Source: Dehalococcoidia bacterium (GTDB taxonomy: Bacteria; Chloroflexota; Dehalococcoidia; SZUA-161; SpSt-899). Taken from it: DNA of 64,000 nt. Shown here piece by piece: positions 12,242 through 63,290 of this stretch. The stretch spans positions 3,673 to 67,672 of the forward strand of contig DAOTYO010000036.1 of the NCBI GenBank assembly GCA_034434815.1, given 5' to 3'. The stretch's first letter is position 1, and each line of letters begins with the position of its first letter. The notes beneath the pieces were generated by a model. The model made no database searches and had not been told where the DNA came from. It saw only the letters and a list, made by a program, of their open reading frames with translations. Both the position numbers and the translations under genes were made by a program.

Positions 12242-12841
12242 TCACTTCTTGAACAATATGAGCGAGCGGATCCCATATCCGCACTCGAGTTCGGCGGTGC
12301 GCGCGATCTCGGCACGATGGTCGGAAAGGATGCGCTTCACGCCGCGTGTGACTTCGGGCCAATCCTCGAACTCCCAATCATGGAAGCCGATGGCGCCTCC
12401 GCTCACAAGACGAGGCCAGATGATCTTGAAGTCGTTGATCACGAAGGCTTCTTGATGACACCCGTCCACGAATCCAAAGCAGAACTTTTGCCCCTTACCG
12501 AAGCGCACCTTTCTCGAATCCTTCCGGATGGTGACGATGTTATCGAATCCGGTGGTGGCTTCACGGTAAACCTCCCACATCGATCGGCCTTGGAGAAATG
12601 CTAGATACACCTCTCGGGCGGTGGCGCCTTTGGGACTGACGGTCTCGTCGAGCTCAGGATCGAAGATATCCACGACGAACACTTTCTTTCCGCATCGCTG
12701 GGCGAAGGCGGCAAGCTTGACCGTTCCCCCTCCCATGAACGCCCCGATTTCGATAAGATCTCCCTCGAGGGTGTGGAGGTGGTGTTCCTCGACGAAGGCG
12801 ATGAGGGCTTCGTAACCGACGAAGTCGGGGGGTGGATTCAT
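12242..12841 (-). CDS. class I SAM-dependent methyltransferase
   Basis: 199 aa. …LIEIGAFMGGGTVKLA… is a Rossmann SAM-binding motif I, with …VDGCH… downstream. Last gene of a 4-gene minus-strand operon. Confidence 0.6.
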   Translation of the reverse strand: MNPPPDFVGYEALIAFVEEHHLHTLEGDLIEIGAFMGGGTVKLAAFAQRCGKKVFVVDIFDPELDETVSPKGATAREVYLAFLQGRSMWEVYREATTGFDNIVTIRKDSRKVRFGKGQKFCFGFVDGCHQEAFVINDFKIIWPRLVSGGAIGFHDWEFEDWPEVTRGVKRILSDHRAEIARTAELECGYGIRSLILFKK

Positions 12842-12842
12842 T

Positions 12843-13865
12843 CTAGCGCTCGTTGAAGCGTTCCCAGAAATCCCTGACCAGTTGATCGCCGTTGGTCAGT
12901 TGGGTTGTGGCGGCGATGGCCATGCCCGCGGAGACCCATGTGAACTTCTTTTCTTCCGGCCATACCGTTTCTTCCGGAATCTTCATGCCGCTCCAGAACG
13001 AACCGGGCTTATCCTGCAGCCGGAGGATCCACTGCAAAAGCTGCCGCGCTCTTCCCCACTCCCCCAGACGTGCCAGCGCTACGATCAGTTCGCACGTTTC
13101 CCCGGCGGTCACCCAGAAGGGGGCTTCCACAATGCATTTGCAACCCCAGTTTTCGATGATGAAGTCGTTCCAGCGCCGCAAGATACGGTGCCGGGCCGCC
13201 GGACCCGTGATCACCCCGGAGAGCACCGGATAGAACCATGCCATGGCATAATCGCACTGCCGGTAGCCGGGGTCGTCGAATCGCTCCGGATGGTAGCGCA
13301 AAGCATGGGCGAGCTTATCGCGGGCCTTCTCCCAATCGGGCCGCGATTTGCCCAAGGCTCTGGCGATCTTGATGCCGGAGGTGAGGCTCAGACAGATGCA
13401 ACTGCACGATGCGGAAAGGGCTCGATCCCACGGCCGATTCTGGGGATCGAGGCTCCAGTAGATCTCTCCTGTCGGCTGTTGAAGGCTCACGGCGAAGTCC
13501 AGCCCCCGCTCGATCGTCGGCCACATGTATTCGAGAAAGTCGGCATCTTCTGTGGCCAGATACCGGCACCACATCCCCACGGCGATATAGGAAGAGTAGT
13601 TCGTATCGCGGGCCAGTTCAGTGGGCTGATCGTTCACGTAATTCGAATACCAGCTTCCATCGGGGTTCTGCATCCGGCGGAGCCACTCGTATGCCTTTCG
13701 GGCTTCCTCGTGGCGGCGCGAGAGATCGAGGGCGATGGCGCACTCCACGTGGTCCCATGGATCTGTGACGTCCCCTTTCTGCCATGGGATCGCGCCGGAG
13801 GGGAGCTGATGCTGCGCGATGTACTCGGCGGAATCGTGAATTACGTTACGAAACAGATTGGCCAT
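12843..13865 (-). CDS. alpha/alpha-toroid protein (prenyltransferase/squalene-oxidase-repeat or six-hairpin glycosidase-like)
   Basis: 340 aa with repeated …GAIPW…DPWDHVE…, …NPDGSWY…, …QPTGEIYW… and …KPGSFWSG… aromatic-rich repeats typical of (alpha/alpha)6 barrels. Function not assignable from sequence. Confidence 0.45.
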   Translation of the reverse strand: MANLFRNVIHDSAEYIAQHQLPSGAIPWQKGDVTDPWDHVECAIALDLSRRHEEARKAYEWLRRMQNPDGSWYSNYVNDQPTELARDTNYSSYIAVGMWCRYLATEDADFLEYMWPTIERGLDFAVSLQQPTGEIYWSLDPQNRPWDRALSASCSCICLSLTSGIKIARALGKSRPDWEKARDKLAHALRYHPERFDDPGYRQCDYAMAWFYPVLSGVITGPAARHRILRRWNDFIIENWGCKCIVEAPFWVTAGETCELIVALARLGEWGRARQLLQWILRLQDKPGSFWSGMKIPEETVWPEEKKFTWVSAGMAIAATTQLTNGDQLVRDFWERFNER

Positions 13866-13871
13866 AGGCGT

Positions 13872-14600
13872 TTACCCGGCAGTGGTCCCGTTTCGACGCT
13901 TGCGCGCATACAAAACGATGCTCTTGGCAAAGACGGTGTTGAGGGCATCATCGAGGAGCCGGACGGGAGTGGTCCGCGTTTTCAGATCCCACACAAGGAA
14001 CTTATGGTATAGCGAAGGGATCAGCGCTTTGTCGTTATCGGCCCCGAATAGGCAGCGCGAAATCCAGTAAAAGGAATGGAGGGCATGCTTATGGCGGACG
14101 GCAAAGATCTCGAGGTTGTTCTGGGAAAGTTTGGCTTTAAGCTCCCCCGCCCGATAGATCCTCACATGCCCCCCGGGGCTGGTCCGGTAGGACCGGGAAA
14201 GCTTCCAACAGATCCTTTCGGGAAGATAGGAAGGGACGCTTACGGCGAGGGTGCCATCGTCTTTGAGGACACGGACAAGCTCGCGCATGGCCTGCACATC
14301 GTCCGGGATATGCTCCAGAACTTCGGAGCAGATCACCTTGTCGAAGGTGCCGTCTCGGAAGGGAAGCCTGAGGATATCCGCCTGAGCCAGAAGCCAGACC
14401 CCTTTGGATTCGCCTTGATCCTCGAGCCGCCGGAAGACGCCGTACCCCTTGCGAAGGCTCTCGCGGTTCAAGTCCAACGCACAAACGATGCATTCCCCCT
14501 GTTTGCAGGCTTCCCAGCTATGGCGCCCTTCCCCACACCCGATATCGAGCACCCTCTCGCCCGGCCGCAGGGTGAGGAGTTTGTAATCGATGGTCAACAT
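13872..14600 (-). CDS. class I SAM-dependent methyltransferase (Methyltransf_11/UbiE-like)
   Basis: …VLDIGCGEGRH… motif I, …LLAQADILRLPFRDGTFDKVICSEVLEHIPD… motifs II/III. Confidence 0.75.
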   Translation of the reverse strand: MLTIDYKLLTLRPGERVLDIGCGEGRHSWEACKQGECIVCALDLNRESLRKGYGVFRRLEDQGESKGVWLLAQADILRLPFRDGTFDKVICSEVLEHIPDDVQAMRELVRVLKDDGTLAVSVPSYLPERICWKLSRSYRTSPGGHVRIYRAGELKAKLSQNNLEIFAVRHKHALHSFYWISRCLFGADNDKALIPSLYHKFLVWDLKTRTTPVRLLDDALNTVFAKSIVLYARKRRNGTTAG

Positions 14601-15829
14601 CTAACCATCTCCTCGTAGACGGCCACTGTGTTCTCGGCGGCCCGTCTCCACGTGAAGTGGTTTTCCACGCGCCTTCGGCCTGCCTCCCCCATCCGCTTCC
14701 TGAGGTGCGGATCGGTGAGGAGGAGTTTGATGGCGGTGGCCAGGGCACCGGGGTCGGCCGGGGGAACGGAAAGCCCCGCTTCGCTATCGGTTCCGATCAC
14801 CTCCGGCAGGGCTCCCGCACGCGAGACGATCACCGGAAGGCCGCAGGCCATCGCTTCGGTGGCGGGCAGACCGAACCCTTCATAGAGGGAAGGGACTACG
14901 GCCACTTCGGAGGCCGAGTAACGGGCTACCAGTTCACGGTCATCAATCCTTCCGGTGAAGGTGACGATATCCTGCAGGTGATGTCTGCGGATGAGGGTTT
15001 CGCTTCTTCCGCCGGGGATCGGAGATCCGACGATTGTCAACTTGGGTTGTATTCCATTTCGAACAAGGCTGAGCGCCTCGAGTAAATAGCCGACTCCCTT
15101 CATCGGGCTATCGGCGCTGTTTACCGTGATGAGACTGTTGGGTTCCTTTTGGGCTGACTGATCGGGACGGAAGAGGGTTTCGTCCGTGCCGTTGTAAACG
15201 ACGCGGGTTTTTTCCTTGGGGACCCCGAAGGCGCGGCTCGTATCCGCCGCGGCGGCATTGGAAACCGAGATGATCCGATCCATCCGCCGGGCCACGTATC
15301 CCTGCATGCGGATAAAGGAATACCATCGCTTGAGGCGGAGTTTCCAATAGAGGTTCTTGGCCGAAGCGATGTCGACATCTCGATCGACTGTCACGGGATG
15401 ATGGATGGTGGCCACCACCGGAATCTTGAGAAACCGCTTGATCCACAAAAGCCCGTAACCAAGCCCTTGATTATCGTGGACGATATCGAATTTGTAGATG
15501 GGCTGAAGCTCGCGGAGCTTCATGAAAGCCCGGACGCTGAAGGTGAATGGCTCGGGAAAGCCGCCCAGGGCCACATCGCCATATTCGTACAGATTGAGGG
15601 GGGTCGGTTTCTTGGGAAAGTCAAATGGAAAACGGCGGGTGGATTCATAGAGATTGAGGCTCGGGAGTCTGTGAAGGACCACACCCTCCTCCACCACGGG
15701 ATACGGAGGCCCCGATATCACATGCACCGTGTGTCCCAGACGAAGGAGCTCGCGGGAAAGATAGTAGATGTAAACCCCCTGTCCCCCGCAATTGGGTTTC
15801 CCTCTATAGCATAGAAGACAGATATTCAT
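14594..15829 (-). CDS. glycosyltransferase family 4 (GT-B fold)
   Basis: N-terminal …YRGKPNCGGQGVYIYYLSRELLRLGHTVHVISGPPYP… and C-terminal …EGFGLPATEAMACGLPVI… (EX7E-type GT4 motif). Overlaps the downstream methyltransferase by 7 nt. Confidence 0.8.
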   Translation of the reverse strand: MNICLLCYRGKPNCGGQGVYIYYLSRELLRLGHTVHVISGPPYPVVEEGVVLHRLPSLNLYESTRRFPFDFPKKPTPLNLYEYGDVALGGFPEPFTFSVRAFMKLRELQPIYKFDIVHDNQGLGYGLLWIKRFLKIPVVATIHHPVTVDRDVDIASAKNLYWKLRLKRWYSFIRMQGYVARRMDRIISVSNAAAADTSRAFGVPKEKTRVVYNGTDETLFRPDQSAQKEPNSLITVNSADSPMKGVGYLLEALSLVRNGIQPKLTIVGSPIPGGRSETLIRRHHLQDIVTFTGRIDDRELVARYSASEVAVVPSLYEGFGLPATEAMACGLPVIVSRAGALPEVIGTDSEAGLSVPPADPGALATAIKLLLTDPHLRKRMGEAGRRRVENHFTWRRAAENTVAVYEEMVRC

Positions 15830-16037
15830 GGCTACCTTCTCCTACATGCTTCCCGTTCTTCCTAAGGGTGAGGCGATTCAAGAGAGGGGTTTCACCCGAT
15901 TCCACAGTGGCCGTTCCCTTGCCGGGAAGAATCCCCCTTCTTCGCCTGCGAAGGGCGGCGACAATCTGGCCGAGTATAACCCATCGGCACCGGATTTGTC
16001 AACCCGCCGTTGGACAAGTCGTGCATGCTTGTAAAGT

Positions 16038-16061
16038 AATTTGGACGATTTGATCCAAATT
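16038..16061. promoter_or_regulatory. perfect inverted repeat AATTTGGA-N8-TCCAAATT (candidate operator)
   Basis: 8-bp perfect palindromic arms ~45 nt upstream of the -35 of the SBP operon promoter. A second imperfect IR TTGTCAAC-N5-GTTGGACAA lies just upstream. Confidence 0.4.
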
Positions 16062-16105
16062 ATGCCGTTCGCAGTGACACTAGTATCAGAACATGGCCTT
16101 GCAGC

Positions 16106-16135
16106 TTGACATCTTTCTCCGGCCGGTGGTAGAAT
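16106..16135 (+). promoter_or_regulatory. sigma70-like promoter TTGACA-18-TAGAAT
   Basis: Consensus -35 and near-consensus -10, ~100 nt upstream of the SBP start. Confidence 0.45.
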
Positions 16136-17562: not shown

Positions 17563-19008
17563 ATGATCGGAATCACGGCGTACGGAGCCTATATCCCCTG
17601 GCACCGGATGGAAAGGCAACTCTGTGTCAAGGCATGGGGGGGATTCGCCATGCCGGGGGAAAAGGCGGTGGCGTTCTTCGATGAGGACAGCGTCACCATG
17701 GGCGTTGCCGCCGCCCTGGATTGCATGGGAGATGTGGACCCCCAGACGATTGATGGCCTGTATTTCAGCACCACTACACCGCCTTATAAGGAGAAGCAAT
17801 CGGCGGCCATCATGGCGATCGCTCTGGGACTGCGGCGCGATGTGCGCACCGCCGATTTCGGCACCTCGCTCCGGGCCGGCACCATCGCTTTCGGCGCAGC
17901 GCACGATGCCTTGAAGGCCGGCACCGCAAAGAGCATCCTTGTGACCGCAGCGGATATGCGCCTTGCGGCTCCCGGCGGCATTACGGAACAGGGCCTGGGG
18001 GATGGAGCGGCCGCCTTTCTCTTGGGCACGGAGAACGTGATCGCCGAGATTCAGGGGAGCTACTCCATCACCGATGAGCTTGCCGGAACATGGCGCGCGG
18101 CCGATGACACCTTCATCCGCTCATGGGAAGACCGCATGGTCCTCGATGAGGGCTATTCGGTCATCATCCCGGAGGCGTTGACCGGGATCATGAAGAAGTA
18201 CGGGCTTTCCCCCAAGGACTTCACCAAGGTGGTATTCGATAGCCCTGTGGACGGCCGCCGGCATGGCAAGGCGGCCGCTGCAGCGGGCTTCGATGCTTCT
18301 CAGGTTCAAGAGCCGTTCACCCTCTTCTTGAAGGTCGGGCTTACGGGATGTGCATCCGCCCCGATGATGTTGGTGAGCGCTCTCGAATCCGCCAAGCCCG
18401 GCGATAGGATCCTCTATGCCGGCAGCGGTGATGGGGTGGACGCCTTTATCCTTCGCGTGACCGATGCCATCACCAAACTTTCACCGCGCCGGGGAATCAA
18501 GGGGCATTTGGCTTCCAAGAAAATGATGGATAGCTACAATGCGTATCTGGTCTGGCGGGGCATCGTTCCTCAGGAAGAGGCACGCCGTCCCCCCAAGACG
18601 CCCGCCCGGCTTTCCGCTATCTGGCGGGAGAGAAGGCAACAACTCGGGCTCTGGGGTATCAAGTGTCGCAAATGCGGGACCGTTCAATACGATAACGGCG
18701 CCGCGGCTACCACGCCCATCCGCATCTGCGCGGTTTGCGGCGCGAAGGATGACTTCGAGGACTATAACTTCTCCCGGAGGAAGGCCAAGATCTTCAGCTA
18801 TACGCATGATAACCTTGCGCCCGTAGCGGATCCGCCGGCCTCGGTCGTTTTGGTGGATTTCGAGGGCGGCGGGCGCGCCTTCTTCGATCTCACGGATCGG
18901 GACCCCGCGGAGATCGCCGTGGGCACCGAGGTCGAGATGACCTTCAGGCGGATGCAGGTCAATCGGGGACTGAGCATTTACCACTGGAAAGCCCGCCCCG
19001 TGCGGTAG
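17563..19008 (+). CDS. HMG-CoA synthase-like (thiolase-fold) domain fused to DUF35 (Zn ribbon + OB fold)
   Basis: N-terminus MIGITAYGAYIPWHR resembles archaeal HMGCS (M..GI.G.GAYIPRYR). C-terminal 130 aa carry CRKCG…CAVCG Zn ribbon + OB fold (DUF35). No Cys in the region where the HMGCS nucleophile is expected. Confidence 0.65.
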   Translation: MIGITAYGAYIPWHRMERQLCVKAWGGFAMPGEKAVAFFDEDSVTMGVAAALDCMGDVDPQTIDGLYFSTTTPPYKEKQSAAIMAIALGLRRDVRTADFGTSLRAGTIAFGAAHDALKAGTAKSILVTAADMRLAAPGGITEQGLGDGAAAFLLGTENVIAEIQGSYSITDELAGTWRAADDTFIRSWEDRMVLDEGYSVIIPEALTGIMKKYGLSPKDFTKVVFDSPVDGRRHGKAAAAAGFDASQVQEPFTLFLKVGLTGCASAPMMLVSALESAKPGDRILYAGSGDGVDAFILRVTDAITKLSPRRGIKGHLASKKMMDSYNAYLVWRGIVPQEEARRPPKTPARLSAIWRERRQQLGLWGIKCRKCGTVQYDNGAAATTPIRICAVCGAKDDFEDYNFSRRKAKIFSYTHDNLAPVADPPASVVLVDFEGGGRAFFDLTDRDPAEIAVGTEVEMTFRRMQVNRGLSIYHWKARPVR

Positions 19009-19029
19009 ATATGATAAAGGAGAAAAGAG

Positions 19030-20199
19030 ATGCCGGGGAGTATCAAGGATCGAGTTGCAATCGTTGGAATGGGGTGCACCCAGTTCGGGGAATTGTGGGG
19101 CAAGGGCCCGACCGATCTCATTGTCGAGGCGGTGAGTGAAGCCCTGGCCGATGCCGAAATCGAGATCAAGGACATTCAAGCCGTGTGGAGCGGTACGCTC
19201 TTCAGCGGGAACGGCGGCCGGACGGTCAGCGAAGCCCTGCGGCTTCCTTATCTGCCGGTGACGCGGGTGGAGAACGCCTGCGGCTCCGGGCACGAGGCGG
19301 TCAGAGGCGCATCTTATGCGGTGGCCGCCGGCATCTATGATATCTGTCTGGCCGTCGGCTATGAGAAGCTCAAGGACGAGGGCATGAGCGGATTGCCCGG
19401 CATGCAAAACCGAACGGGCACCCATTACGAATCGAGCATGCCCGGGGTCTTCGCCATGATGGCGACCCGCTATTTCAACCGGTACGGCCTTTCCCCACAG
19501 GAGGGAAAAGCCATGCTGGGAAGGATCTCCGTCAAGAGCCATCATAATGGGGCCTTGAATCCCAAGGCGCACCTCCGCCGGGAGATCACCCTCGAACAGG
19601 TGCTCAATGCGCCCATCATCGCTTGGCCGCTCGGCCTGTTCGATTGTTGCGGCGTCTCCGACGGGGCGGCGGCCGCCATCATCGTCCGCGCCGATATGGT
19701 CAAGAGCTTCAAGAACAGGCCGGTCTATGTGAAGGCCCTTCAGATCTGCGCCAGCCCCACTTCGGGCCGGATGGTGACGGACTACGACTACACGCATGTG
19801 GAGGAAGCCTATCGGGCGGGGATCGCCGCTTATAAGGAAGCCGGCATTACCAATCCCCGCAAGGAAGTGAGCATGGCGGAAGTTCACGATTGCTTCTCGA
19901 TCACCGAGGCCGTCACCATGGAAGACCTTCAGTTCAGTCCACGCGGCCGGGTGAAAGAAGATATCGAAGCGGGCACCTTCGAGCTCACCGGTCCCCTTCC
20001 CGTTCAACCGGATGGCGGACTCAAGTGCTTCGGGCACCCGATCGGCGCTTCCGGAATCCGGATGCTGTATGAGCCTTACCTTCAATTTCAGGGCCGCGCC
20101 GGCAAGCGGCAGATCAAGGACCCCAAGATCGCGTTGGCCCACAATATGGGCAATGAACCCTATGCGCCGGTGGTGAGCGTCTGCATCGTCGGCGTCTAA
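19030..20199 (+). CDS. thiolase (SCP2/archaeal acetoacetyl-CoA thiolase type)
   Basis: …VENACGSG… nucleophilic Cys motif, …FGHPIGASGIRM… C-terminal His motif; 389 aa. Confidence 0.8.
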   Translation: MPGSIKDRVAIVGMGCTQFGELWGKGPTDLIVEAVSEALADAEIEIKDIQAVWSGTLFSGNGGRTVSEALRLPYLPVTRVENACGSGHEAVRGASYAVAAGIYDICLAVGYEKLKDEGMSGLPGMQNRTGTHYESSMPGVFAMMATRYFNRYGLSPQEGKAMLGRISVKSHHNGALNPKAHLRREITLEQVLNAPIIAWPLGLFDCCGVSDGAAAAIIVRADMVKSFKNRPVYVKALQICASPTSGRMVTDYDYTHVEEAYRAGIAAYKEAGITNPRKEVSMAEVHDCFSITEAVTMEDLQFSPRGRVKEDIEAGTFELTGPLPVQPDGGLKCFGHPIGASGIRMLYEPYLQFQGRAGKRQIKDPKIALAHNMGNEPYAPVVSVCIVGV

Positions 20200-20256
20200 A
20201 AACGGCTGAAGTCTCGCCGATTGGAGCGGGGATTCGGCGCATGGCGTGAAGAGCGA

Positions 20257-20296
20257 AGTGGGGCGCGCACGGATGTGCGCGCCCCACTTCTTTTCC
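20257..20296 (+). terminator. intrinsic terminator after thiolase
   Basis: AGTGGGGCGCGCAC-GGAT-GTGCGCGCCCCACT hairpin followed by TCTTTTCC. Confidence 0.65.
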
Positions 20297-20333
20297 CATT
20301 CCGCACCGGAGCCCGTGCTATAATGGGCACGGC

Positions 20334-21269
20334 ATGATAATGGACGCCTTGATCATCCTCGCGATTGCCTTGCTCACGGATATCCTGATCGGCGATCCCC
20401 CCACCCCCCTTCACCCCGTCGGTTGGATGGGCAGGCTTATTTCCCTCCTCCAGAGAGGTTCACCCCCACAGGGTCCCCGCATTCAGCTTGCATACGGGTT
20501 CGGCATCGTGCTTTTCGGGGTGGGAATCGTCGCCGCCTCCGCCTATTTTTCGCTCATGTATTTGGAGCGGGTCAGCCATATCGCCTTTCTCATCGTGGGA
20601 GGCCTTCTTCTCAAGAGCACCTTCGCCGTCCGCGGACTGGGTCGGCACGCCGGGCGGATCCGTAAGTTGCTCTCGCGCGGCGATGTCTCCACCGCGCGTG
20701 CTCGCATGAACGCACTCGTCAGTCGGGATACCCGAACCCTGAACGAATCTCAATTGGTGGCCGCCACCGTGGAATCGGTCGCCGAGAACACGTCCGATAG
20801 CTTCGTCGCCCCCATCTTCTATTTCATGCTCTTCGGCGTTCCCGGTGCGATGGCCTACCGGATGGCGAATACCTTCGATGCCATGATCGGCTATCATGGG
20901 GAATATGAGTATCTTGGCAAGGCGGCGGCCCGCCTCGATGATGTCCTCAACTTCATCCCCGCGCGGCTCACCGGATTGCTGATGATCGTTGCGGCCTTCG
21001 TCCTCCGGTATGATCCGAGACGGGCATGGCATATCATGCTCCGCGATCACGCCAAAACTGAAAGCCCCAATGCCGGATGGCCCATGAGCGCCGCCGCCGG
21101 CGCGCTCGGCGTTCAGCTCGAGAAAGCGGGGCATTACCGCTTGGGGGATGCCCGTAACCTTCTCTTGAGCCAACAGATCGATCGGAGCATCGCGCTCATG
21201 TATGGCACCGCTCTCGTCTGGGTTTTCCTCTGTGGGGCCGTGAGGGGGGTGATCATTGTTGCATCCTAG
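20334..21269 (+). CDS. cbiB: adenosylcobinamide-phosphate synthase CbiB/CobD (membrane)
   Basis: Multi-TM protein with …HPVGWMGR…, …YRMANTFDAMIGY… and …NAGWPMSAAAGALGVQL… CbiB signature blocks. Confidence 0.9.
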   Translation: MIMDALIILAIALLTDILIGDPPTPLHPVGWMGRLISLLQRGSPPQGPRIQLAYGFGIVLFGVGIVAASAYFSLMYLERVSHIAFLIVGGLLLKSTFAVRGLGRHAGRIRKLLSRGDVSTARARMNALVSRDTRTLNESQLVAATVESVAENTSDSFVAPIFYFMLFGVPGAMAYRMANTFDAMIGYHGEYEYLGKAAARLDDVLNFIPARLTGLLMIVAAFVLRYDPRRAWHIMLRDHAKTESPNAGWPMSAAAGALGVQLEKAGHYRLGDARNLLLSQQIDRSIALMYGTALVWVFLCGAVRGVIIVAS

Positions 21270-22338
21270 GCCGGAAATCCGGGCGCTTCACCCGTGTCCC
21301 CACGGCGGACCCAATTTCGCCGAGGCCCTTTCCTTGGGAATTCCGCCGGAATCCATCCTTGATTTCAGCGTGAGCGCCAATCCCTTCGGACCCGCTCCGG
21401 CGGTGCGATCCGCCGCCGCTGTGGCCCCCATCGACCGGTATCCCGATTCCGCTTGCATCGAGCTTCGTGGGACCATTGCCCGGGCGCTCGGTCTCGCCCC
21501 GGAAAACCTCTTCATCGGGAGCGGCTCGATGGAGATCATCCGCCTATTGGCTTTGGCTTACATCTCCCCGGGTGATCGGGTTCTCATTCCGGAGCCCACT
21601 TTCGGCGAGTACGAAGTCGCCGCGAAGATCATGGGCGCTCGGATCATCCGGTGCCGCGCGGGCGAGGGGACGGGGTTTCGCTTCGAGGTGAATGATCTTC
21701 TCGCCCGGATTCAAGAGCATCATCCCCGGATCGTTTTCCTGAGCAATCCCAATAACCCCACCGGCCAGTACTGGCGCAGGGACGAAGTTGAATCCATCCT
21801 CCGGGCCGATGCGGATGCCCTCCTTGCTTTGGACGAGGCCTATATCGCATTCACTGAAGATCGGTGGAACGCCATTGACTTGCTTTCTTATCGGAATCTC
21901 TTGATCATCCGTTCGCTGACCAAAGATCATGCCCTGGCCGGACTGCGCATCGGGTATGCCGTTGGGAGCCCTGAGCTCATCGAAACGCTTCGGAAGGTGA
22001 GCCCTCCATGGAACGTAAACGCTCCGGCCCAATACGCGGCGGCCGCCGCTATCCAAGAGCAAGCTTATGTGGAGCGATGCCGCGAGCAAGTCCTTGCGGC
22101 GCGCGACTATCTCGTGAAGGCGCTGTTGCAGCGGGGATTCCGGGTTCTGCCCACAGAGGCCCATTTCTTTCTAGTGAAGGTGGGAAACGCCGCCGTTTTC
22201 CGAGAAGATCTCCTCCGGCGGGGCATCGCGGTTCGGGATTGCACCTCATTCGGGCTGCCCGAGTATATTCGAATCGCTCCCCGTACCATGCCCGAGTGCC
22301 GGAAACTGATCGAAGCCATTGACTCTCCGGGAAAATGA
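21256..22338 (+). CDS. cobD: L-threonine-O-3-phosphate decarboxylase / class I-II aminotransferase (CobD/CobC type)
   Basis: PLP-fold I motifs (…SNPNNPTG…, …SLTKDHALAGLRIGY…) in a cobalamin gene context. A histidinol-phosphate aminotransferase-like alternative cannot be excluded. Confidence 0.65.
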   Translation: MLHPRPEIRALHPCPHGGPNFAEALSLGIPPESILDFSVSANPFGPAPAVRSAAAVAPIDRYPDSACIELRGTIARALGLAPENLFIGSGSMEIIRLLALAYISPGDRVLIPEPTFGEYEVAAKIMGARIIRCRAGEGTGFRFEVNDLLARIQEHHPRIVFLSNPNNPTGQYWRRDEVESILRADADALLALDEAYIAFTEDRWNAIDLLSYRNLLIIRSLTKDHALAGLRIGYAVGSPELIETLRKVSPPWNVNAPAQYAAAAAIQEQAYVERCREQVLAARDYLVKALLQRGFRVLPTEAHFFLVKVGNAAVFREDLLRRGIAVRDCTSFGLPEYIRIAPRTMPECRKLIEAIDSPGK

Positions 22339-22847
22339 AAGCTGTGGTTTTCGCCCTTGCGGTGGCTCTTGCGGCGCTGCCGGTGGTGGGCGGCGCTTGC
22401 GGGAAAGCGGGTTCGCCCGTAAAGGTGAGCATCTCGGAAATCGCCCTTGCCGAGGTCTCCTACAGTATGATTGTGGTGGAGGTGACGGTTCAAATCGTCA
22501 ACGGGGGAGATTCGCCGGCGGTGATGGATAGGATCGAATACGATATCTACTTCGGGCACAAGGATAAGTGGATCTGGTTGGGGCGGGGAAGCGAAACGCA
22601 GCGGGAGATCGGCGCCGGGCAGACGATGGGTTTCACCATTCAGACTCAGATCGACAACAGTCGGCTCATCCGCCTTGTGACGGAAGCGATCTTCGGCACG
22701 GAGCCCTCGCAGCTCAAGGTGGATGGCCGGGCCTCCTTCACCCGCGGCACGTCCGCTTTTCAGGTGCGCTTCGATAAGAAAATGACCTCTCCTTCTTCTC
22801 CCGGTGAGCAATCCGCAAATCCGCTTCTACGGGGGAGGGAGGGCTGA
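22335..22847 (+). CDS. putative lipoprotein, LEA_2/WHy-like beta-sandwich domain
   Basis: Signal peptide + …VVGGACG… lipobox-like motif; …VTVQIVNGGDSP…IEYDIYFG… resembles LEA14/LEA_2 topology. Weak call. Confidence 0.35.
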   Translation: MKAVVFALAVALAALPVVGGACGKAGSPVKVSISEIALAEVSYSMIVVEVTVQIVNGGDSPAVMDRIEYDIYFGHKDKWIWLGRGSETQREIGAGQTMGFTIQTQIDNSRLIRLVTEAIFGTEPSQLKVDGRASFTRGTSAFQVRFDKKMTSPSSPGEQSANPLLRGREG

Positions 22848-23772
22848 GATGCGGGAAGGGATTGTCATCGAGGCGTATCCCGTCTTCGGGAAGGGCACGT
22901 TCAGGGCGTACCCGGAGCTCTTCGAGCCGTATCTTCGGAATCAACCGGCCCATATTCGCGAGAAGTACCGCAAGGCCCGGCGAACGCTGCCGAAGTTCGA
23001 GGGGAGCATCAAATGGCAGACCATCCGCGGGACCGGATTCTGTGCCTCCATCCATCCGGGAAGCGCCAAGGTCTTCCATGCGCTCATGACGGGCGCGGCA
23101 CACCCCATATACGTAAGTGATTGTCTGTACATCAATCTCCGCCATCGCATCTTCGCCCTCTCCGATCCGCCGGGAATGACCACCCTCTCCCGTTCCCTTC
23201 TCGAAGCTCTGGACCGGTATCTGAAGGCGGATCCCCGGGCGGATCTCGAAGCCATCATCAACCGGGTCAACCGGGAGGCCGGAGAGGGGTTGAGGGATCG
23301 GGCTACGTTGAGCCTTCTGCATTTGCCCCCGGATGATCCGAACACCGCCCGTCTCGTTCTGGCCGGCGATAGCTATCTCTGGCACGGCAGCGGGGAGACG
23401 GGAGAGCTACGTCTTGCCCAAGCCGTCCCCAACCGCTGGGGCACGCCCAATATGGAACTTTACATAAATTCAGTGCCTTTGAAAGAAGGCGACTTTTTTC
23501 TTCTCGCGACGGATGGGGTCATCGCTCTTCGCTATCGTTTTCCCGATGAAGGTCTCGAGGAGGCGCTGGCGCGCCGGGTGCGAACGGACGGCCCGGCGTT
23601 CGCCGAACGATTGGCCCGGGAATGCAATGACGTGCTGATCGAACTGACGCCCGAGGGGCGGCAAGCGCGGTTTGCGGGCGGGGATGATCTTGCCGTTGTT
23701 CTGGTTCATCCGCGGAGTCTGCCGGGCCCCGAGATCGGAGAAACCTATATCCTTGGCGGTTACGTGATCTGA
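22846..23772 (+). CDS. PP2C/SpoIIE-like serine/threonine phosphatase domain protein
   Basis: Three acidic PP2C motifs in order (…FALSDPPG…, …LLATDGV…, …GGDDLAVVLV…). Start at the ATG preceded by GGGAGGG (the ORF track offers 22804). Confidence 0.5.
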   Translation, partial: EMREGIVIEAYPVFGKGTFRAYPELFEPYLRNQPAHIREKYRKARRTLPKFEGSIKWQTIRGTGFCASIHPGSAKVFHALMTGAAHPIYVSDCLYINLRHRIFALSDPPGMTTLSRSLLEALDRYLKADPRADLEAIINRVNREAGEGLRDRATLSLLHLPPDDPNTARLVLAGDSYLWHGSGETGELRLAQAVPNRWGTPNMELYINSVPLKEGDFFLLATDGVIALRYRFPDEGLEEALARRVRTDGPAFAERLARECNDVLIELTPEGRQARFAGGDDLAVVLVHPRSLPGPEIGETYILGGYVI

Positions 23773-23776
23773 AAGG

Positions 23777-25165
23777 ATGCATGAGATGGAGGACCCCTGC
23801 GCGGTTGCCCGGATCCTCATCGCCGGAACCCATAGCGGCGTCGGCAAGACAACATTTTCGATCGGCATCATGGCCGCGCTTCAGGCGCGGGGATTGGATA
23901 TCCGGCCGTACAAGGTCGGGCCGGATTATATTGATCCCTCCCATCACAGCGCCGCCTCAGGGCGCCTGTGCCGCAATCTCGATAGTTGGATGCTCCCTCC
24001 TTCAGCCCTCGTAGAGATCTTTTGCCGTTCCGCTCGCGGAGCCGATATCGCGGTCATCGAAGGCGTCATGGGCTTGTTCGATGGCCTCAGCGGATTGGAT
24101 GACTCCGGCAGCACGGCGGAGGTAGCTCGGATCCTGCGCACGCCGGTGATTCTAGTGATCGATGCCGGTTCGATGGCCCGTAGCGCCGCCGCCGTGGCGC
24201 AGGGCTATGCCCGTTTCGATCCGACCCTCCCCCTTGCCGGATTCCTCATCAACGGCATCGGCAGCGAGCGGCACTTCGCATGGGTGCGGGAGGCCATCGA
24301 AACGGCCGTATCGCTTCCTGTGCTGGGATATCTGCCCAAACGTGCCGAGATCACGATCCCCGAAAGGCATTTGGGATTGATCCCCGCTGCCGAGGCGGGG
24401 GGCAAGACGCCCATCGAGGCCCTTCGCCGCGAGATTGAGGAGACGGTGGACCTTGACCGCATCGTCGCCATTGGGCGCACCGCTGAGCCGTTGACCCCTC
24501 CGAGCGGCGGTGAAGGTCTCTTTCCCGCCGAGCCCTTTCCTCCCGCTGCAATAATCGCTTATGCCCGCGATGAGGCCTTCAGCTTCTACTACCCGGATAA
24601 CCTCGATTTGATCGAAGCCTATGGCGGCGAACTCGTGCCTTTCAGCCCGCTGGCCGAACCCGCTCTGCCCTCGGGTACACGGGGGATCTACATCGGCGGG
24701 GGATTCCCCGAAATCTATGCCGAACGGCTGAGCGCCAATCGTCCCCTCATCCGGTCCATCCGCAGCGCCGCCGCCGCCGGAATCCCTATCTATGCCGAAT
24801 GCGGCGGGCTCATGTACCTCTCGGAGGGGATCACGGACCGCAGCGGCCGCTTTCACCCCATGGTCGGGATCGTGCCCGGACGGGTGCGCATGACGGGAGG
24901 GCTTTCGCGGATGGGTTATGTGGAAGTGGCCCTTGCGCATGATGGTCCTCTCGGGCCGGCCGGGCTTCGGGCCCGGGGGCACGAGTTCCACTGGTCGGAA
25001 ACGGAAGGCGATCTCTCGCCCCCGGCCCATCGGGTGATCTTCCCCGAAGATCGGGAGGAAGGATATGCCTTTGGGAATGTGATCGCCTCTTACATTCATC
25101 TTCACTTCGGTTCCAATCCCGCTCTGGCGCGGAACCTCGTTTCGGCATGTCTTAAGAGAATTTGA
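23777..25165 (+). CDS. cbiA: cobyrinate a,c-diamide synthase
   Basis: N-terminal …IAGTHSGVGKTTFS… and …VGPDYIDPS… with a C-terminal GATase-1-like domain (…YAECGGLMYL…); 462 aa. Confidence 0.85.
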   Translation: MHEMEDPCAVARILIAGTHSGVGKTTFSIGIMAALQARGLDIRPYKVGPDYIDPSHHSAASGRLCRNLDSWMLPPSALVEIFCRSARGADIAVIEGVMGLFDGLSGLDDSGSTAEVARILRTPVILVIDAGSMARSAAAVAQGYARFDPTLPLAGFLINGIGSERHFAWVREAIETAVSLPVLGYLPKRAEITIPERHLGLIPAAEAGGKTPIEALRREIEETVDLDRIVAIGRTAEPLTPPSGGEGLFPAEPFPPAAIIAYARDEAFSFYYPDNLDLIEAYGGELVPFSPLAEPALPSGTRGIYIGGGFPEIYAERLSANRPLIRSIRSAAAAGIPIYAECGGLMYLSEGITDRSGRFHPMVGIVPGRVRMTGGLSRMGYVEVALAHDGPLGPAGLRARGHEFHWSETEGDLSPPAHRVIFPEDREEGYAFGNVIASYIHLHFGSNPALARNLVSACLKRI

Positions 25166-25167
25166 TT

Positions 25168-25196
25168 TTGACAAAGTCTAGTTGATTTGCTATAGT
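25168..25196 (+). promoter_or_regulatory. sigma70 promoter TTGACA-17-TATAGT driving the B12 riboswitch/cobT
   Basis: Consensus -35 and good -10 with 17-nt spacer, immediately 5' of the riboswitch. Confidence 0.6.
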
Positions 25197-25204
25197 TTGA
25201 ACGG

Positions 25205-25425
25205 CAGTTTCATGTGCCCTGAGGCGTCCGGGAGAAGGACTCAATAGGGAAGGCCCGTGGGAATCGGGCGCGGTCCCGCCGCTGTGACCGGGGACGAAAG
25301 GTGAAAGGGTTGCCACTGCCCGTCTTGAGGCGGGTGGGAAGGCTCACCGAGTAGGGGGATCCGGAAGCCAGAAGACCTGCCGAGGGCATTCCCGAATCTT
25401 CGGGGAAGGGGCTTCTCCGGGGAGA
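25205..25425 (+). ncRNA. cobalamin (B12) riboswitch
   Basis: …CTCAATAGGGAAGGCCCGTGGGAATCGGGCGCGGTCCCGCCGCTGTGACC… core plus B12 box …AGCCAGAAGACCTGCC… Located 5' of cobT. Confidence 0.85.
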
Positions 25426-25433
25426 TGGCAAAT

Positions 25434-25473
25434 CCCCAAGCCAAGATTCTTGGTTTGGGGATTTTTTATTTTT
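25434..25473 (+). terminator. intrinsic terminator (riboswitch expression platform)
   Basis: CCCCAAGCCAAGA-TTC-TTGGTTTGGGG hairpin followed by ATTTTTTATTTTT. Lies 12 nt before the cobT SD/ATG. Confidence 0.8.
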
Positions 25474-25485
25474 GAAGGAGGAAAG

Positions 25486-26556
25486 ATGAGCACATTGCTT
25501 GAGAGGACGATCGGATCCATCGGGCCGCTGAATGAGGTCGCGATGCGGGCCGCCCGCGAGCGGCAAGATCAGCTCACCAAGCCGTTGGGGAGTCTGGGTA
25601 GGTTGGAGGCTCTTTCCGTTCAAGTGGCCGGAATCACCGGCAAGCCCCGCCCGAAGATCATTCACAAGGCCGTCATTGTCATGGCCGCCGATCACGGGGT
25701 GGTCCGCCAAGGGGTTAGCCTCTACCCACAGGAGGTTACCGCTCAGATGGTGCGGGGGTTCCTTGCCGGTCATGCGGGGATCAACGTTCTGGCCCGGCAT
25801 GTAGGGGCGCGGGTCACGGTAGTGGATATGGGGGTCATCGGGGGATTCGAACCGCATCCCGATCTCGTCTGCAAGATGATTGATTTCGGCACGAAGGACA
25901 TGACCGAGGGCCCGGCCATGACCCGGCTTCAGGCGGTACAGGCCGTCGAATCGGGCATCGAAGTGCTCGAAGCGGAGCGGGCGAAAGGGCTGGATCTTGT
26001 GGGCACCGGCGATATGGGCATCGGCAATACCACCGCCTCTTCGGCCATCACGGCCGCCATCACGGGAAGGCCGGCACGGGAGGTAACGGGGCGGGGGACG
26101 GGGTTGGGGGATGAACAGTTGGCGCGTAAGGTCCGGTTGGTGGAAGAAGCGCTCCGCCGCAATGCTCCAGACCCTTCCGATGCGCTGGACGTGCTCTCGA
26201 AGGTCGGGGGATTTGAGATCGGCGGCCTTGCGGGGGTGATTCTGGGGGCGGCGGCACACCGCATCCCCGTGGTGATCGACGGGTTCATTTCCGGGGCGGC
26301 GGCGCTCATCGCCTTTGGCCTTTGCCCCCGCTCTCGGGACTACATGATCGCCGGGCATCGCTCGGTGGAGATCGGGCACCGGGCGATCTATGAGCATATC
26401 GGCCTTGAGCCGGTATTGGATCTGGGGCTCCGGCTCGGCGAAGGCACGGGGGGAGCACTCGCCATGAGTGTGGTCGAGGCTTCTTGCAAAATCCTCGATG
26501 AGATGCTCACCTTTGCCGAAGCGGAGGTCTCGGAAGCGGATAAGAGAGCAGAGTAG
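25486..26556 (+). CDS. cobT: nicotinate-nucleotide--dimethylbenzimidazole phosphoribosyltransferase
   Basis: …KPLGSLGRLE…, …VIVMAADHGV… and …GTGDMGIGNTT… are canonical CobT motifs. Start at the ATG after GGAGG (the ORF track starts 36 nt earlier, inside the terminator). Confidence 0.9.
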   Translation: MSTLLERTIGSIGPLNEVAMRAARERQDQLTKPLGSLGRLEALSVQVAGITGKPRPKIIHKAVIVMAADHGVVRQGVSLYPQEVTAQMVRGFLAGHAGINVLARHVGARVTVVDMGVIGGFEPHPDLVCKMIDFGTKDMTEGPAMTRLQAVQAVESGIEVLEAERAKGLDLVGTGDMGIGNTTASSAITAAITGRPAREVTGRGTGLGDEQLARKVRLVEEALRRNAPDPSDALDVLSKVGGFEIGGLAGVILGAAAHRIPVVIDGFISGAAALIAFGLCPRSRDYMIAGHRSVEIGHRAIYEHIGLEPVLDLGLRLGEGTGGALAMSVVEASCKILDEMLTFAEAEVSEADKRAE

Positions 26557-33426: not shown

Positions 33427-36420
<2,994 letters not shown>

Positions 36421-36444: not shown

Positions 36445-36519
36445 CGCGGGGTGGAGCAGTGGAAGCTCGTCGGGCTCATAACCCGAAGGCCGTTGGTTCG
36501 AATCCAACCCCCGCTACCA
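36445..36519 (+). tRNA. tRNA-Met (CAU), initiator type
   Basis: CGCGGGGTGGAGCAGTGGAAGCTCGTCGGGCTCATAACCCGAAGGCCGTTGGTTCGAATCCAACCCCCGCTACCA has a C1:U72 mismatch and three G-C pairs closing the anticodon stem. It is near-identical to E. coli tRNA-fMet. CCA is encoded. Confidence 0.85.
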
Positions 36520-48599: not shown

Positions 48600-48906
48600 G
48601 AGCAAATTAAAAAGCCTCCGCCCCAAAGGGGCGGAGGCTTCTCCGCGGTGCCACCCTTCTTGACCGAACGCGCTTACAGCGTTGGCCATCTCGTGAGGGT
48701 ACGACCGTTTTCGGTGATACCCTGGGCTTTGATCACGGTGCCCTTCCGGCAAGGCCTACTTGCCCGCTTGCGCGGGGTTCGGTTTGCGGCTCCCAGGCCC
48801 ATTCCCCTTCGGCATCGGCATCGGGCTCTCACCTTACCCCGACTCTCTGTGGCCTAGCGGTGAAAGGTACTCTTCCTGTTCACAGCCTTTGGTCGTTATT
48901 CGATTG
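48600..48906 (-). ncRNA. T-box leader (tRNA-sensing riboswitch) with terminator, upstream of trpE
   Basis: The minus strand reads …AGAAGGGTGGCACCGCGG (T-box consensus AAUUAGGGUGGNACCGCG) followed by GGAGAAGCCTCCGCCCC-TTT-GGGGCGGAGGC + TTTTTAATTT terminator. A promoter TTGACA-18-TATATT sits on the minus strand at 48943-48914. Confidence 0.7.
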
Positions 48907-63146: not shown

Positions 63147-63290
63147 GAACAAAAAGACCGGGAGCCTAGGTGATTCGGTTCCCGGTCGTCTTGAGCACCG
63201 CTTCCCTACGCTCGCATTATCGAGGTCAGGTTCAAAGAGTTCCCCGCTCATCCGGGGTCTCAGCTTTGAGCACCTCTAGCGGTTGACCTG
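63147..63290 (-). ncRNA. TPP riboswitch (aptamer + terminator expression platform) upstream of thiC
   Basis: The minus strand reads …GCTGAGACCCCGGATGAGCGGGGAACTCTTTGAACCTGACCTCGATAATGCGAGCGTAGGGAAGCGG… (THI-box). This is followed by GACCGGGA-N16-TCCCGGTC + TTTTTGTT terminator. Confidence 0.85.

Follow-up and report, generated by a model that had tools for sequence, protein, structure and literature searches.

In a window of 64,000 nucleotides from a Dehalococcoidia bacterium (Chloroflexota; contig DAOTYO010000036.1), which is the whole stretch of DNA that we analysed, positions 17563–20199 hold two adjacent genes on the plus strand. The first (ORF 17563–19008) encodes a 481-aa protein that begins MIGITAYGAYIPWHR and fuses a domain resembling hydroxymethylglutaryl-CoA synthase (HMGCS), hereafter the HMGS-like domain, to a DUF35 module. 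The second (ORF 19030–20199), the next gene after the fusion, encodes a 389-aa SCP2-type thiolase. Both ORFs are present as claimed by a first-pass annotation, made from the letters alone, which had taken them for a thiolase/DUF35 complex with a catalytically dead HMGCS-like subunit.

The pair is preceded by a gene for a substrate-binding lipoprotein. Its true start is the ATG at 16234, behind the strong ribosome-binding site AAGGAGGG, and public gene calls likewise give a 427-aa product from this ATG; the mechanical ORF start at 16093 is too early, and the conserved promoter falls inside the longer ORF. The intergenic gaps measure 45 nt between the binding-protein and fusion genes and 21 nt between the fusion and thiolase genes, with an AAGGAG-type ribosome-binding site in each. 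Downstream, a terminator-like hairpin that the consensus terminator scan had missed starts 55 nt past the thiolase stop (−41.1 kcal/mol, z = −5.85; none of 200 shuffles folds as stably). With their short gaps and ribosome-binding sites, a conserved promoter and a closing hairpin, the three genes look like one predicted transcription unit. The fusion and thiolase ORFs share the same frame, and the 21 nt between them hold three stops (TAG, TGA and TAA). An antisense ORF of 553 aa (18481–20142, minus strand) runs across the 3′ end of the fusion gene and over most of the thiolase gene; we take it as a shadow ORF in a sequence of ~60% G+C, since the plus-strand genes have strong family matches.

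The first-pass annotation had linked the pair to the binding protein. The gene does lie upstream in the same predicted unit, but the association is local. Eight loci (L001–L006, L016 and L054) share the upstream synteny of the window, a divergent cluster of a GT4 glycosyltransferase, a methyltransferase, a weakly squalene-cyclase-like repeat protein and a second methyltransferase, of which most or all genes (window 12242–15829, minus strand) accompany the fusion–thiolase pair. Their fusion proteins are 75–81% identical to that of the window, the seven complete thiolases among them are 83–89% identical to the window thiolase, and the binding-protein gene is absent from all eight. The intergenic region between the GT4 and fusion genes of these orthologues aligns with the window region between the GT4 and binding-protein genes, both divergent promoters included, and the plus-strand promoter is kept base for base, lying there directly 5′ of the fusion gene; in the window, therefore, the binding-protein gene separates the fusion gene from a conserved promoter. 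The order binding protein–fusion–thiolase also occurs in two relatives whose fusion proteins are 95 and 88% identical to ours, so that the insertion is fixed in a sub-lineage. We thus read the binding-protein gene, from these sequence comparisons, as a lineage-specific insertion of one sub-lineage, found where the fusion is at least 88% identical and absent at 81% or less, and we rejected a conserved link between it and the pair. No solved-structure relative of the binding protein was found.

The palindromic operator proposed ahead of this unit fared similarly. The perfect inverted repeat between the two divergent promoters, ~45 bp upstream of the −35 element of the plus-strand promoter, is real and statistically unexpected (one match in the window, none in 100 shuffles). 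It occupies a conserved AT-rich element (TnTGrAC..TTTG) of which only the left half and the AT-rich core are kept: its right arm has decayed in the 95% relative and is missing from the 88% one, orthologues farther off carry another, imperfect dyad there, and the exact core was found in none of 54 loci searched. As the dyad is not conserved even at 95 and 88% identity, we rejected it as evidence of regulation, and an operator role is unproven.

Active sites of the fusion protein and the thiolase

Family models, solved structures and structure prediction agree on the HMGCS-like N-terminal and DUF35 C-terminal domains of the fusion that the first-pass annotation had recognised. Residues 1–334 align end to end with the archaeal HMGCS model NF003274, at 223.2 bits and below its cut-off of 244, and the HMGCS model TIGR00748 also scores below cut-off (162 bits against 353.35). 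Pfam reports PF01796 (OB_ChsH2_C, the DUF35 OB fold) at residues 406–462, together with a weak KAS III C-terminal match. Among solved structures, the N-terminal domain is closest to the PhlA homologues 9skh_A (E 1e-39) and 5m3k_A (E 4e-37), followed by the HMGCS of M. thermolithotrophicus (6esq_I, E 2e-33), and the C-terminal 130 residues match the archaeal DUF35 chain 6esq_E (E 7e-7). An AlphaFold model built on 42 homologues (pLDDT 76, pTM 0.83, the weak stretches being loops and the inter-domain linker) retrieved the same proteins in Foldseek with a target TM of ~0.8 (6esq_I/J: probability 1.00, target TM 0.82), and the N-terminal domain is accordingly predicted to adopt the HMGCS/KAS III thiolase fold. 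The linker has a pLDDT below 50 at residues 328–344 and a mean identity among relatives of 52%, against 62% in the flanking domains. The four zinc-ribbon cysteines (Cys368, Cys371, Cys389 and Cys392) are conserved at 98% in the fused family. A fused homologue on a Sphingomonas paeninsulae plasmid (WP_121152073.1; L055, 7001–8446) has no CxxC motif at all, so that the zinc ribbon of its DUF35 module is apparently lost, the architecture being otherwise intact.

To locate the synthase site, we aligned the fusion to 6esq_I, whose sequence was rebuilt from the alignment with a numbering that reproduces the catalytic tetrad E82/C114/H238/N270 of PMC12960953; the Glu82 and Cys114 positions of archaeal HMGCS are also given in PMC6392133. 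The Glu-Cys-His-Asn tetrad is wholly replaced: E82 by Thr71, C114 by Leu103 (..FGTSLRAGT..), H238 by Asp226 (..VVFDSPVD..) and N270 by Leu260. The same holds for the family. In a MAFFT alignment of 150 fused representatives, 34–56% identical to the query and taken one per 50% cluster, the complete tetrad never occurs (0/150). The nucleophile column holds no Cys and is Leu in 100 of the 150; 126 have Thr in the Glu column, the His column shows Tyr, Pro, Ala or Ser, and Asn survives in its own column in only 54. The loss of catalytic residues noted at first sight is thereby confirmed and extended, and on these residues the HMGS-like domain of the fusion is catalytically dead as an HMGCS. Because the tetrad is absent throughout, the residue analysis shows that the whole fused family cannot be HMGCS.

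A substitute nucleophile was looked for and rejected. The first-pass annotation had seen no Cys between residues ~55 and ~290 and had named one at ~293. There is no Cys at ~293, and the interval does contain Cys263, so that the statement is slightly inaccurate; this residue lies away from the nucleophile position and is not conserved, being a Cys in only 15 of 130 representatives. No other generally conserved Cys was found in the HMGS-like domain of these 130 (Cys54 is present in 65%), nor was any conserved Cys or Ser nucleophile found in the fused family at or near the old HMGCS site.

The dead domain has nevertheless been maintained. Mean identity across 41 locus pairs is 62% for the HMGS-like domain, 62% for DUF35, 52% for the linker and 70% for the thiolase; being as conserved as DUF35, the dead domain is therefore under constraint. 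Five of its residues (T71, E77, R104, R133 and D147) are at least 88% conserved, specific to the fused family and different from both HMGCS and PhlA.

The thiolase passes the NCBIfam equivalog NF004810, 'acetyl-CoA acetyltransferase' (558 bits, cut-off 403), and matches PF00108 and PF22691 (Thiolase_N and Thiolase_C_1 fold). Its closest solved relative is the archaeal acetyl-CoA acetyltransferase (ACAT) 6esq_A, with 196 bits, followed by SCP2-type thiolases (6hsj, 4bi9 and 3zbg) and BbsB, whereas PhlC homologues give only 77–80 bits. The Cys and His that the first reading had pointed out in ENACGSG and GHPIGASG are there (Cys84 and Gly335-His336), together with an HDCF loop (His286-Asp-Cys288-Phe). 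A Cys nucleophile, the HDCF loop and GH(P) place the enzyme among the SCP2-type thiolases of the HDCF class. Cys84, HDCF and Gly335-His336 are invariant in 43 partner thiolases of related loci, and the Ser of the CxS motif alternates with Thr. The Cys of the HDCF loop is said to act as acid/base. HDCF is the SCP2-thiolase signature, and the aldolases Ltp2 and Sal have YDHF and YDCY at this loop (PMC12329534). Since the window enzyme has HDCF and a nucleophilic Cys, not YDHF or YDCY, the aldolase or retro-Claisen partner that had been entertained is not favoured, and an Ltp2-like aldolase was rejected on this motif test.

Distribution, gene pairing and genomic context

A word-indexed search returned 3,168 homologues of the fusion among the candidates scored. 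The best 120 of these are nearly all 481–485 aa long, 63–100% identical and from metagenome-assembled genomes (MAGs) of Chloroflexi/Dehalococcoidia, and many of them are named 'HMG-CoA synthase' by their source annotation. Fused members occur in Chloroflexota, Proteobacteria, Actinobacteria and haloarchaea.

Gene order was compared in 54 loci, all from Dehalococcoidia or Chloroflexota, with one genome per species. In nearly every uncut locus a thiolase gene lies directly 3′ of the fusion gene, 12–25 nt away, and the pairing is essentially invariant. The family-wide survey that the first-pass annotation had suggested for Cys-less fusions and their neighbourhoods thus bears out both the missing tetrad and the constant thiolase partner. 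Several genomes have three or more copies of the fusion gene. Tandem fusion–thiolase–fusion–thiolase arrangements occur in L013, L015 and L049, and five genomes (CAZWIP01, CAZCXP01, CAYVES01, SOKG01 and DAOUEU01) stand out for tandem duplications or three or more unlinked copies.

Neighbouring ORFs were clustered, and the clusters identified with Pfam. The clusters include type III CoA-transferases (16 loci) and acyl-CoA dehydrogenases (13 loci), as well as enoyl-CoA hydratases, MaoC dehydratase, aldehyde:ferredoxin oxidoreductase and acetone-carboxylase-like alpha, beta and gamma subunits. A gene for a type III CoA-transferase, acyl-CoA dehydrogenase, enoyl-CoA hydratase, MaoC, 3-oxoacid CoA-transferase or acetone-carboxylase-like protein lies within 6 kb in 27 of 46 informative Dehalococcoidia loci. 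Paralogous pairs adjoin acetone-carboxylase-like genes (hydantoinase A/B and a gamma subunit) in L012, L018, L019 and L051. L018 and L019 also have a gene for a fused 3-oxoacid CoA-transferase, directly after the pair and before the acetone-carboxylase-like genes, a gene set that suggests a coherent route from a ketone through a 3-oxoacid and a 3-oxoacyl-CoA to thiolysis.

Full-length tetrad-less homologues with HDCF/GHP thiolase partners were also found on catabolic megaplasmids. In cultured organisms the loci belong to operons with SDR, MaoC, acyl-CoA dehydrogenase, enoyl-CoA hydratase or 3-hydroxyacyl-CoA dehydrogenase genes. The gene order is SDR (short-chain dehydrogenase/reductase)–MaoC–fusion–thiolase in Sphingomonas and fusion–thiolase–thiolase–SDR–crotonase in Rhodococcus sp. 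DK17. Novosphingobium ES2-1 has acyl-CoA dehydrogenase–SDR–fusion–thiolase–enoyl-CoA hydratase–enoyl-CoA hydratase, followed by Ltp-like/OB-fold, P450 and FadD3 genes; in Azoarcus KH32C the fusion and thiolase genes are adjacent, and the haloarchaeon Natronorubrum has the reversed order thiolase–fusion–3-hydroxyacyl-CoA dehydrogenase–hydratase. Some members, including ones from Deltaproteobacteria MAGs, are extended by SDR and/or SCP2 domains: P0166 (911 aa) reads HMGS-like–DUF35–SDR–SCP2, P0241 (800 aa) ends in SDR and P0185 (722 aa) in two SCP2 domains. The HMGS-like–DUF35–SDR–SCP2 layout recalls peroxisomal MFE-2 and SCPx, and we found no mention of it in the literature examined. A further protein, P0157 (723 aa; HMGS-like with ATP-grasp and molybdopterin-binding domains), looks like an assembly or gene-call chimera and was set aside.

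The features of the window locus are collected in Table 1. Polyketide synthase (PKS) or non-ribosomal peptide synthetase (NRPS) genes were not found near the window pair, whose neighbours are the GT4 and methyltransferase genes on one side and cobalamin genes on the other. The cobalamin-related run (20334–26556) comprises CobD/CbiB (20334–21269), a class I/II aminotransferase (21256–22338), a CobB/CbiA-type amidase (23777–25165) and a CobT-type phosphoribosyltransferase (25450–26556) preceded by a cobalamin riboswitch (25205–25398); it also includes a small protein without family match (22335–22847) and a SpoIIE-like phosphatase ORF (22804–23772). Farther along the window are a complete 23S rRNA gene (33428–36419) followed by a tRNA gene (36445–36516), and, both at gathering score and on the minus strand, a T-box leader (48624–48892) and a TPP riboswitch (63186–63287). 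The 33 kb upstream of the 23S gene gave no 16S rRNA, and no 5S rRNA passed the gathering threshold; the rRNA genes appear to be unlinked in the source genome.

Table 1. Features of the window locus and its divergent neighbours.
Feature	Position	Strand	Basis or remark
Methyltransf_24 protein	12242–12841	−	
340-aa protein	12843–13865	−	weak squalene-hopene-cyclase-like repeat match
Methyltransf_11 protein	13872–14600	−	
GT4 glycosyltransferase	14594–15829	−	
Perfect inverted repeat TAATTTGGA-N8-TCCAAATTA	16037–16062		between the two divergent promoters
Sigma-70-type promoter, TTGACA-18 nt-TGGTAGAAT	16106–16135	+	TG-n-TAGAAT (extended −10); 11/12 consensus matches
Peripla_BP_6 (LivJ-type) substrate-binding lipoprotein, 427 aa	16234–17517	+	family match; signal/lipobox ...LMLAACGGG
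HMG-CoA-synthase-like (thiolase-fold) domain, residues 1–335	17563–18567	+	family and structure matches
Tetrad-equivalent codon Thr71	17773–17775	+	
Tetrad-equivalent codon Leu103	17869–17871	+	
Tetrad-equivalent codon Asp226	18238–18240	+	
Tetrad-equivalent codon Leu260	18340–18342	+	
Linker, residues 336–362	18568–18648	+	low model confidence; least conserved segment
DUF35 module, residues 363–481 and stop codon	18649–19008	+	Cys4 zinc ribbon, then OB fold
Zinc-ribbon Cys368	18664–18666	+	
Zinc-ribbon Cys371	18673–18675	+	
Zinc-ribbon Cys389	18727–18729	+	
Zinc-ribbon Cys392	18736–18738	+	
Ribosome-binding site of the thiolase gene, AAGGAGAAAAG	upstream of 19030	+	sequence
Thiolase catalytic residue Cys84	19279–19281	+	
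Thiolase catalytic residue His286	19885–19887	+	
Thiolase catalytic residue Cys288	19891–19893	+	
Thiolase catalytic residue His336	20035–20037	+	
Intrinsic-terminator-like hairpin, then CUUUUCCC	20255–20298	+	folding energy; perfect 16-bp G+C-rich stem, 4-nt loop

Proposed function of the pair and its alternatives

Biochemical work on complexes of the kind to which the window pair belongs first appeared in 2026. Liao et al (Nat Commun 2026; PMC12960953) solved the structure of MucABC, in which MucA, like PhlA, is without the E-C-H-N tetrad, and listed 1,030 bacterial loci in which genes for HMGS-like, ACAT and DUF35 proteins lie together, 1,001 of them without secondary-metabolism neighbours. 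They also characterised P. fluorescens PfACAT/HMGS-DUF35, in which a fused, tetrad-less HMGS-DUF35 accompanies an ACAT that keeps Cys, HDxF and GHx. This complex cleaves acetoacetyl-CoA thiolytically and forms neither HMG-CoA nor acetoacetyl-CoA from acetyl-CoA, and the substitution H294Y in its HDxF motif nearly abolishes thiolysis. In sequence, the window pair is of this type in every respect: an HMGS-DUF35 fusion, tetrad loss, an adjacent ACAT with Cys (CxS), HDxF and GHx, and no PKS or NRPS genes. It differs in its origin (Dehalococcoidia/Chloroflexota), in its T/L/D/L replacements and in being predicted to be co-transcribed with a binding-protein gene. The likeness to the Pf proteins is one of described features, and the proteobacterial fused homologues readable here (Sphingomonas, Variovorax, Paraburkholderia and Azoarcus), which show the same features, are 30–37% identical.

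The archaeal thiolase/HMGCS/DUF35 complex (6ESQ) contains the same three modules and the nearest solved relative of the thiolase. It consists, unlike the window pair, of three separate proteins with an active HMGCS (E82, C114, H238 and N270) and channels acetoacetyl-CoA into HMG-CoA for the mevalonate pathway, whereas in the window the synthase site has been lost and DUF35 is part of the fusion. PhlACB of P. protegens and MucABC of S. macacae (PDB 5M3K and 9VBO), both Friedel-Crafts C-acetyltransferases, share with the window pair an HMGS-like subunit lacking catalytic residues, PhlA having Cys83 and Gly115 at the Glu and Cys positions, and a DUF35 clamp, and catalysis is by the thiolase-like subunit only. 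In contrast to the window thiolase, PhlC and MucB have lost HDxF and have a pocket remodelled for aromatic or tetramic-acid acceptors; their complexes are built from separate subunits encoded in PKS or NRPS-PKS clusters. Benzoylsuccinyl-CoA thiolase BbsAB (Geobacter/Thauera, PDB 7PXP) likewise has an SCP2-type thiolase with HDxF, which requires a DUF35 zinc-finger subunit. Its beta-oxidation-like operon, in which a type III CoA-transferase, an acyl-CoA dehydrogenase and a hydratase are also encoded, resembles the context of the Dehalococcoidia paralogues. BbsA, unlike the window fusion, is DUF35 alone, with no HMGS-like domain, and the window proteins fall far below the cut-offs of both models (BbsB, 157.3 bits, cut-off 750; BbsA, 16.7 bits, cut-off 250). 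In Ltp2-ChsH2 and Sal-Shy, too, a thiolase-fold subunit is held by a DUF35 fused to another domain, there of MaoC type; these are retro-aldolases of steroid side chains, with YDHF or YDCY loops and no use of a thiolase nucleophile, as opposed to HDCF and Cys84 in the window enzyme.

We consider it likely, with a probability of about 0.77, that the product of 17563–20199 is a 3-ketoacyl-CoA thiolase complex of two subunits, one of them a non-catalytic scaffold. The pair would be transcribed from the conserved sigma-70-type promoter together with the inserted lipoprotein gene, in a unit that would end at the strong hairpin. The thiolase would be the sole catalyst, with Cys84 as nucleophile, Cys288 as acid/base and His286 and His336 completing the site, and would cleave a 3-ketoacyl-CoA with CoA; the one substrate demonstrated for the characterised homologue is acetoacetyl-CoA. 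The fusion would act as a non-catalytic scaffold, with both its DUF35 module and its HMGS-like body in contact with the thiolase. In the solved archaeal thiolase/HMGCS/DUF35, PhlACB and MucABC complexes the DUF35 zinc ribbon and OB fold clamp thiolase-fold subunits, and in PhlACB catalysis is by PhlC residues only, PhlA and PhlB being thought necessary for assembly (PMC6392133). Such a scaffold probably stabilises the thiolase, and may supply some of the CoA-binding chamber or serve as a dock for neighbouring enzymes of beta-oxidation. It may also recruit the preceding dehydrogenase, as the SDR/SCP2 fusions and the DUF35-mediated assembly of ketothiolase, ketoacyl-CoA reductase and dehydratase in S. 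acidocaldarius (bioRxiv 10.1101/2024.07.05.601840) suggest. The domain architecture, the loss of catalytic residues in one subunit and their retention in the other, the invariant gene pair and the gene context can be read directly; complex formation, reaction direction and natural substrate we infer, by analogy with the solved homologous complexes and the P. fluorescens assays. Sequence, predicted fold, family conservation and the P. fluorescens work agree with the catalytically dead, probably structural HMGCS-like subunit that the first-pass annotation had proposed.

Three observations weigh against this interpretation. Of the eight loci orthologous to the window copy, just one has acyl-CoA context (a hydratase gene), and the substrate assignment therefore rests on paralogues and distant homologues; T71, E77, R104, R133 and D147 could belong to a new site for binding or catalysis instead of serving in packing; and thiolases are reversible, so that the reaction could run the other way in vivo.

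A bolder version, which we regard as possible and yet rather unlikely, makes the dead-HMGS/DUF35 protein no vestige, but a modular docking platform for a whole beta-oxidation metabolon. In it the expansion of paralogues in Dehalococcoidia, with three or more fusion–thiolase pairs per genome and some in tandem, would reflect substrate-specific thiolase modules for recalcitrant organic acids and ketones, and the five family-specific residues would form a new acyl-/CoA- or partner-binding site.

Reversibility opens an unlikely alternative, that the pair works in the condensing direction, making acetoacetyl-CoA or longer 3-ketoacyl-CoAs by a Claisen condensation pulled by a docked reductase, on the model of the Sulfolobus thiolase/DUF35 fatty-acid-synthase assembly. 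The fused SDR domain of some family members could be such a reductase, and the window copy is without catabolic neighbours. Against this, PfACAT/HMGS-DUF35 cleaved acetoacetyl-CoA and made none from acetyl-CoA, and the neighbours of the paralogues (type III CoA-transferases, acyl-CoA dehydrogenases, acetone-carboxylase-like proteins and 3-oxoacid CoA-transferase) are typical of degradation.

It is less probable still that the HMGS-like domain holds a new ligand or catalytic site, for substrate specificity, effector binding or an accessory hydrolysis or retro-aldol step. The five family-specific residues, which replace those of HMGCS and PhlA, and a conservation equal to that of DUF35 would fit such a site, as would the interfacial chamber retained in the dead-HMGS complexes PhlACB and MucABC (PMC12960953). 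But no conserved Cys or Ser nucleophile lies at or near the old site, only PhlC residues are catalytic in PhlACB (PMC6392133), and the conserved charged residues may just as well form salt bridges or contacts at an interface.

A Friedel-Crafts C-acyltransferase like PhlACB and MucABC, CoA-utilising and with a small molecule as acceptor, is very improbable and was rejected on motif tests. PhlA homologues are indeed the best solved relatives of the N-terminal domain, and PhlACB and MucABC also have a tetrad-less HMGS-like subunit, but the window thiolase keeps HDCF, whereas the HDxF needed for thiolysis is lost in PhlC and MucB; it scores far higher against archaeal ACAT than against PhlC homologues, no PKS or NRPS genes are nearby, and the HMGS-like and DUF35 parts are fused instead of separate.

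Finally, a genuine mevalonate-pathway HMGCS with non-canonical catalytic residues, for which the public name of many family members and the 223 bits against NF003274 would speak, can be dismissed with near certainty and on motif tests, as both HMGCS models score below cut-off, the four replacements are unable to serve as nucleophile or base, an archaeal HMGCS with tetrad substitutions has no activity and no HMG-CoA is formed by the fused homologue from P. fluorescens (PMC12960953).

Implications for annotation and physiology

The locus itself is an ordinary, well-explained enzyme pair, and the interest that remains lies in its substrate, in mis-annotation and in the role of the conserved dead domain. 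Many proteins of the family, in the thousands, are publicly called 'hydroxymethylglutaryl-CoA synthase', a name by which a step of the mevalonate pathway would be wrongly ascribed to Dehalococcoidia and other bacteria.

For physiology, the authors of the P. fluorescens study, the sole biochemical one, regarded the Pf-type complex as an evolutionary intermediate without a pathway (PMC12960953), whereas the contexts found here point to beta-oxidation-type catabolism. CoA-transferases, acyl-CoA dehydrogenases, hydratases, acetone-carboxylase-like genes with 3-oxoacid CoA-transferase, steroid-type clusters and SDR/SCP2 fusions together give a hypothesis for the ~1,000 bacterial loci, namely that they are beta-ketothiolase modules of catabolic pathways. 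The metabolon reading, if true, would overturn the view of evolutionary intermediates without a pathway. The presence of several such modules per genome bears on the question of which organic acids uncultured subsurface and aquatic Dehalococcoidia may be able to oxidise.

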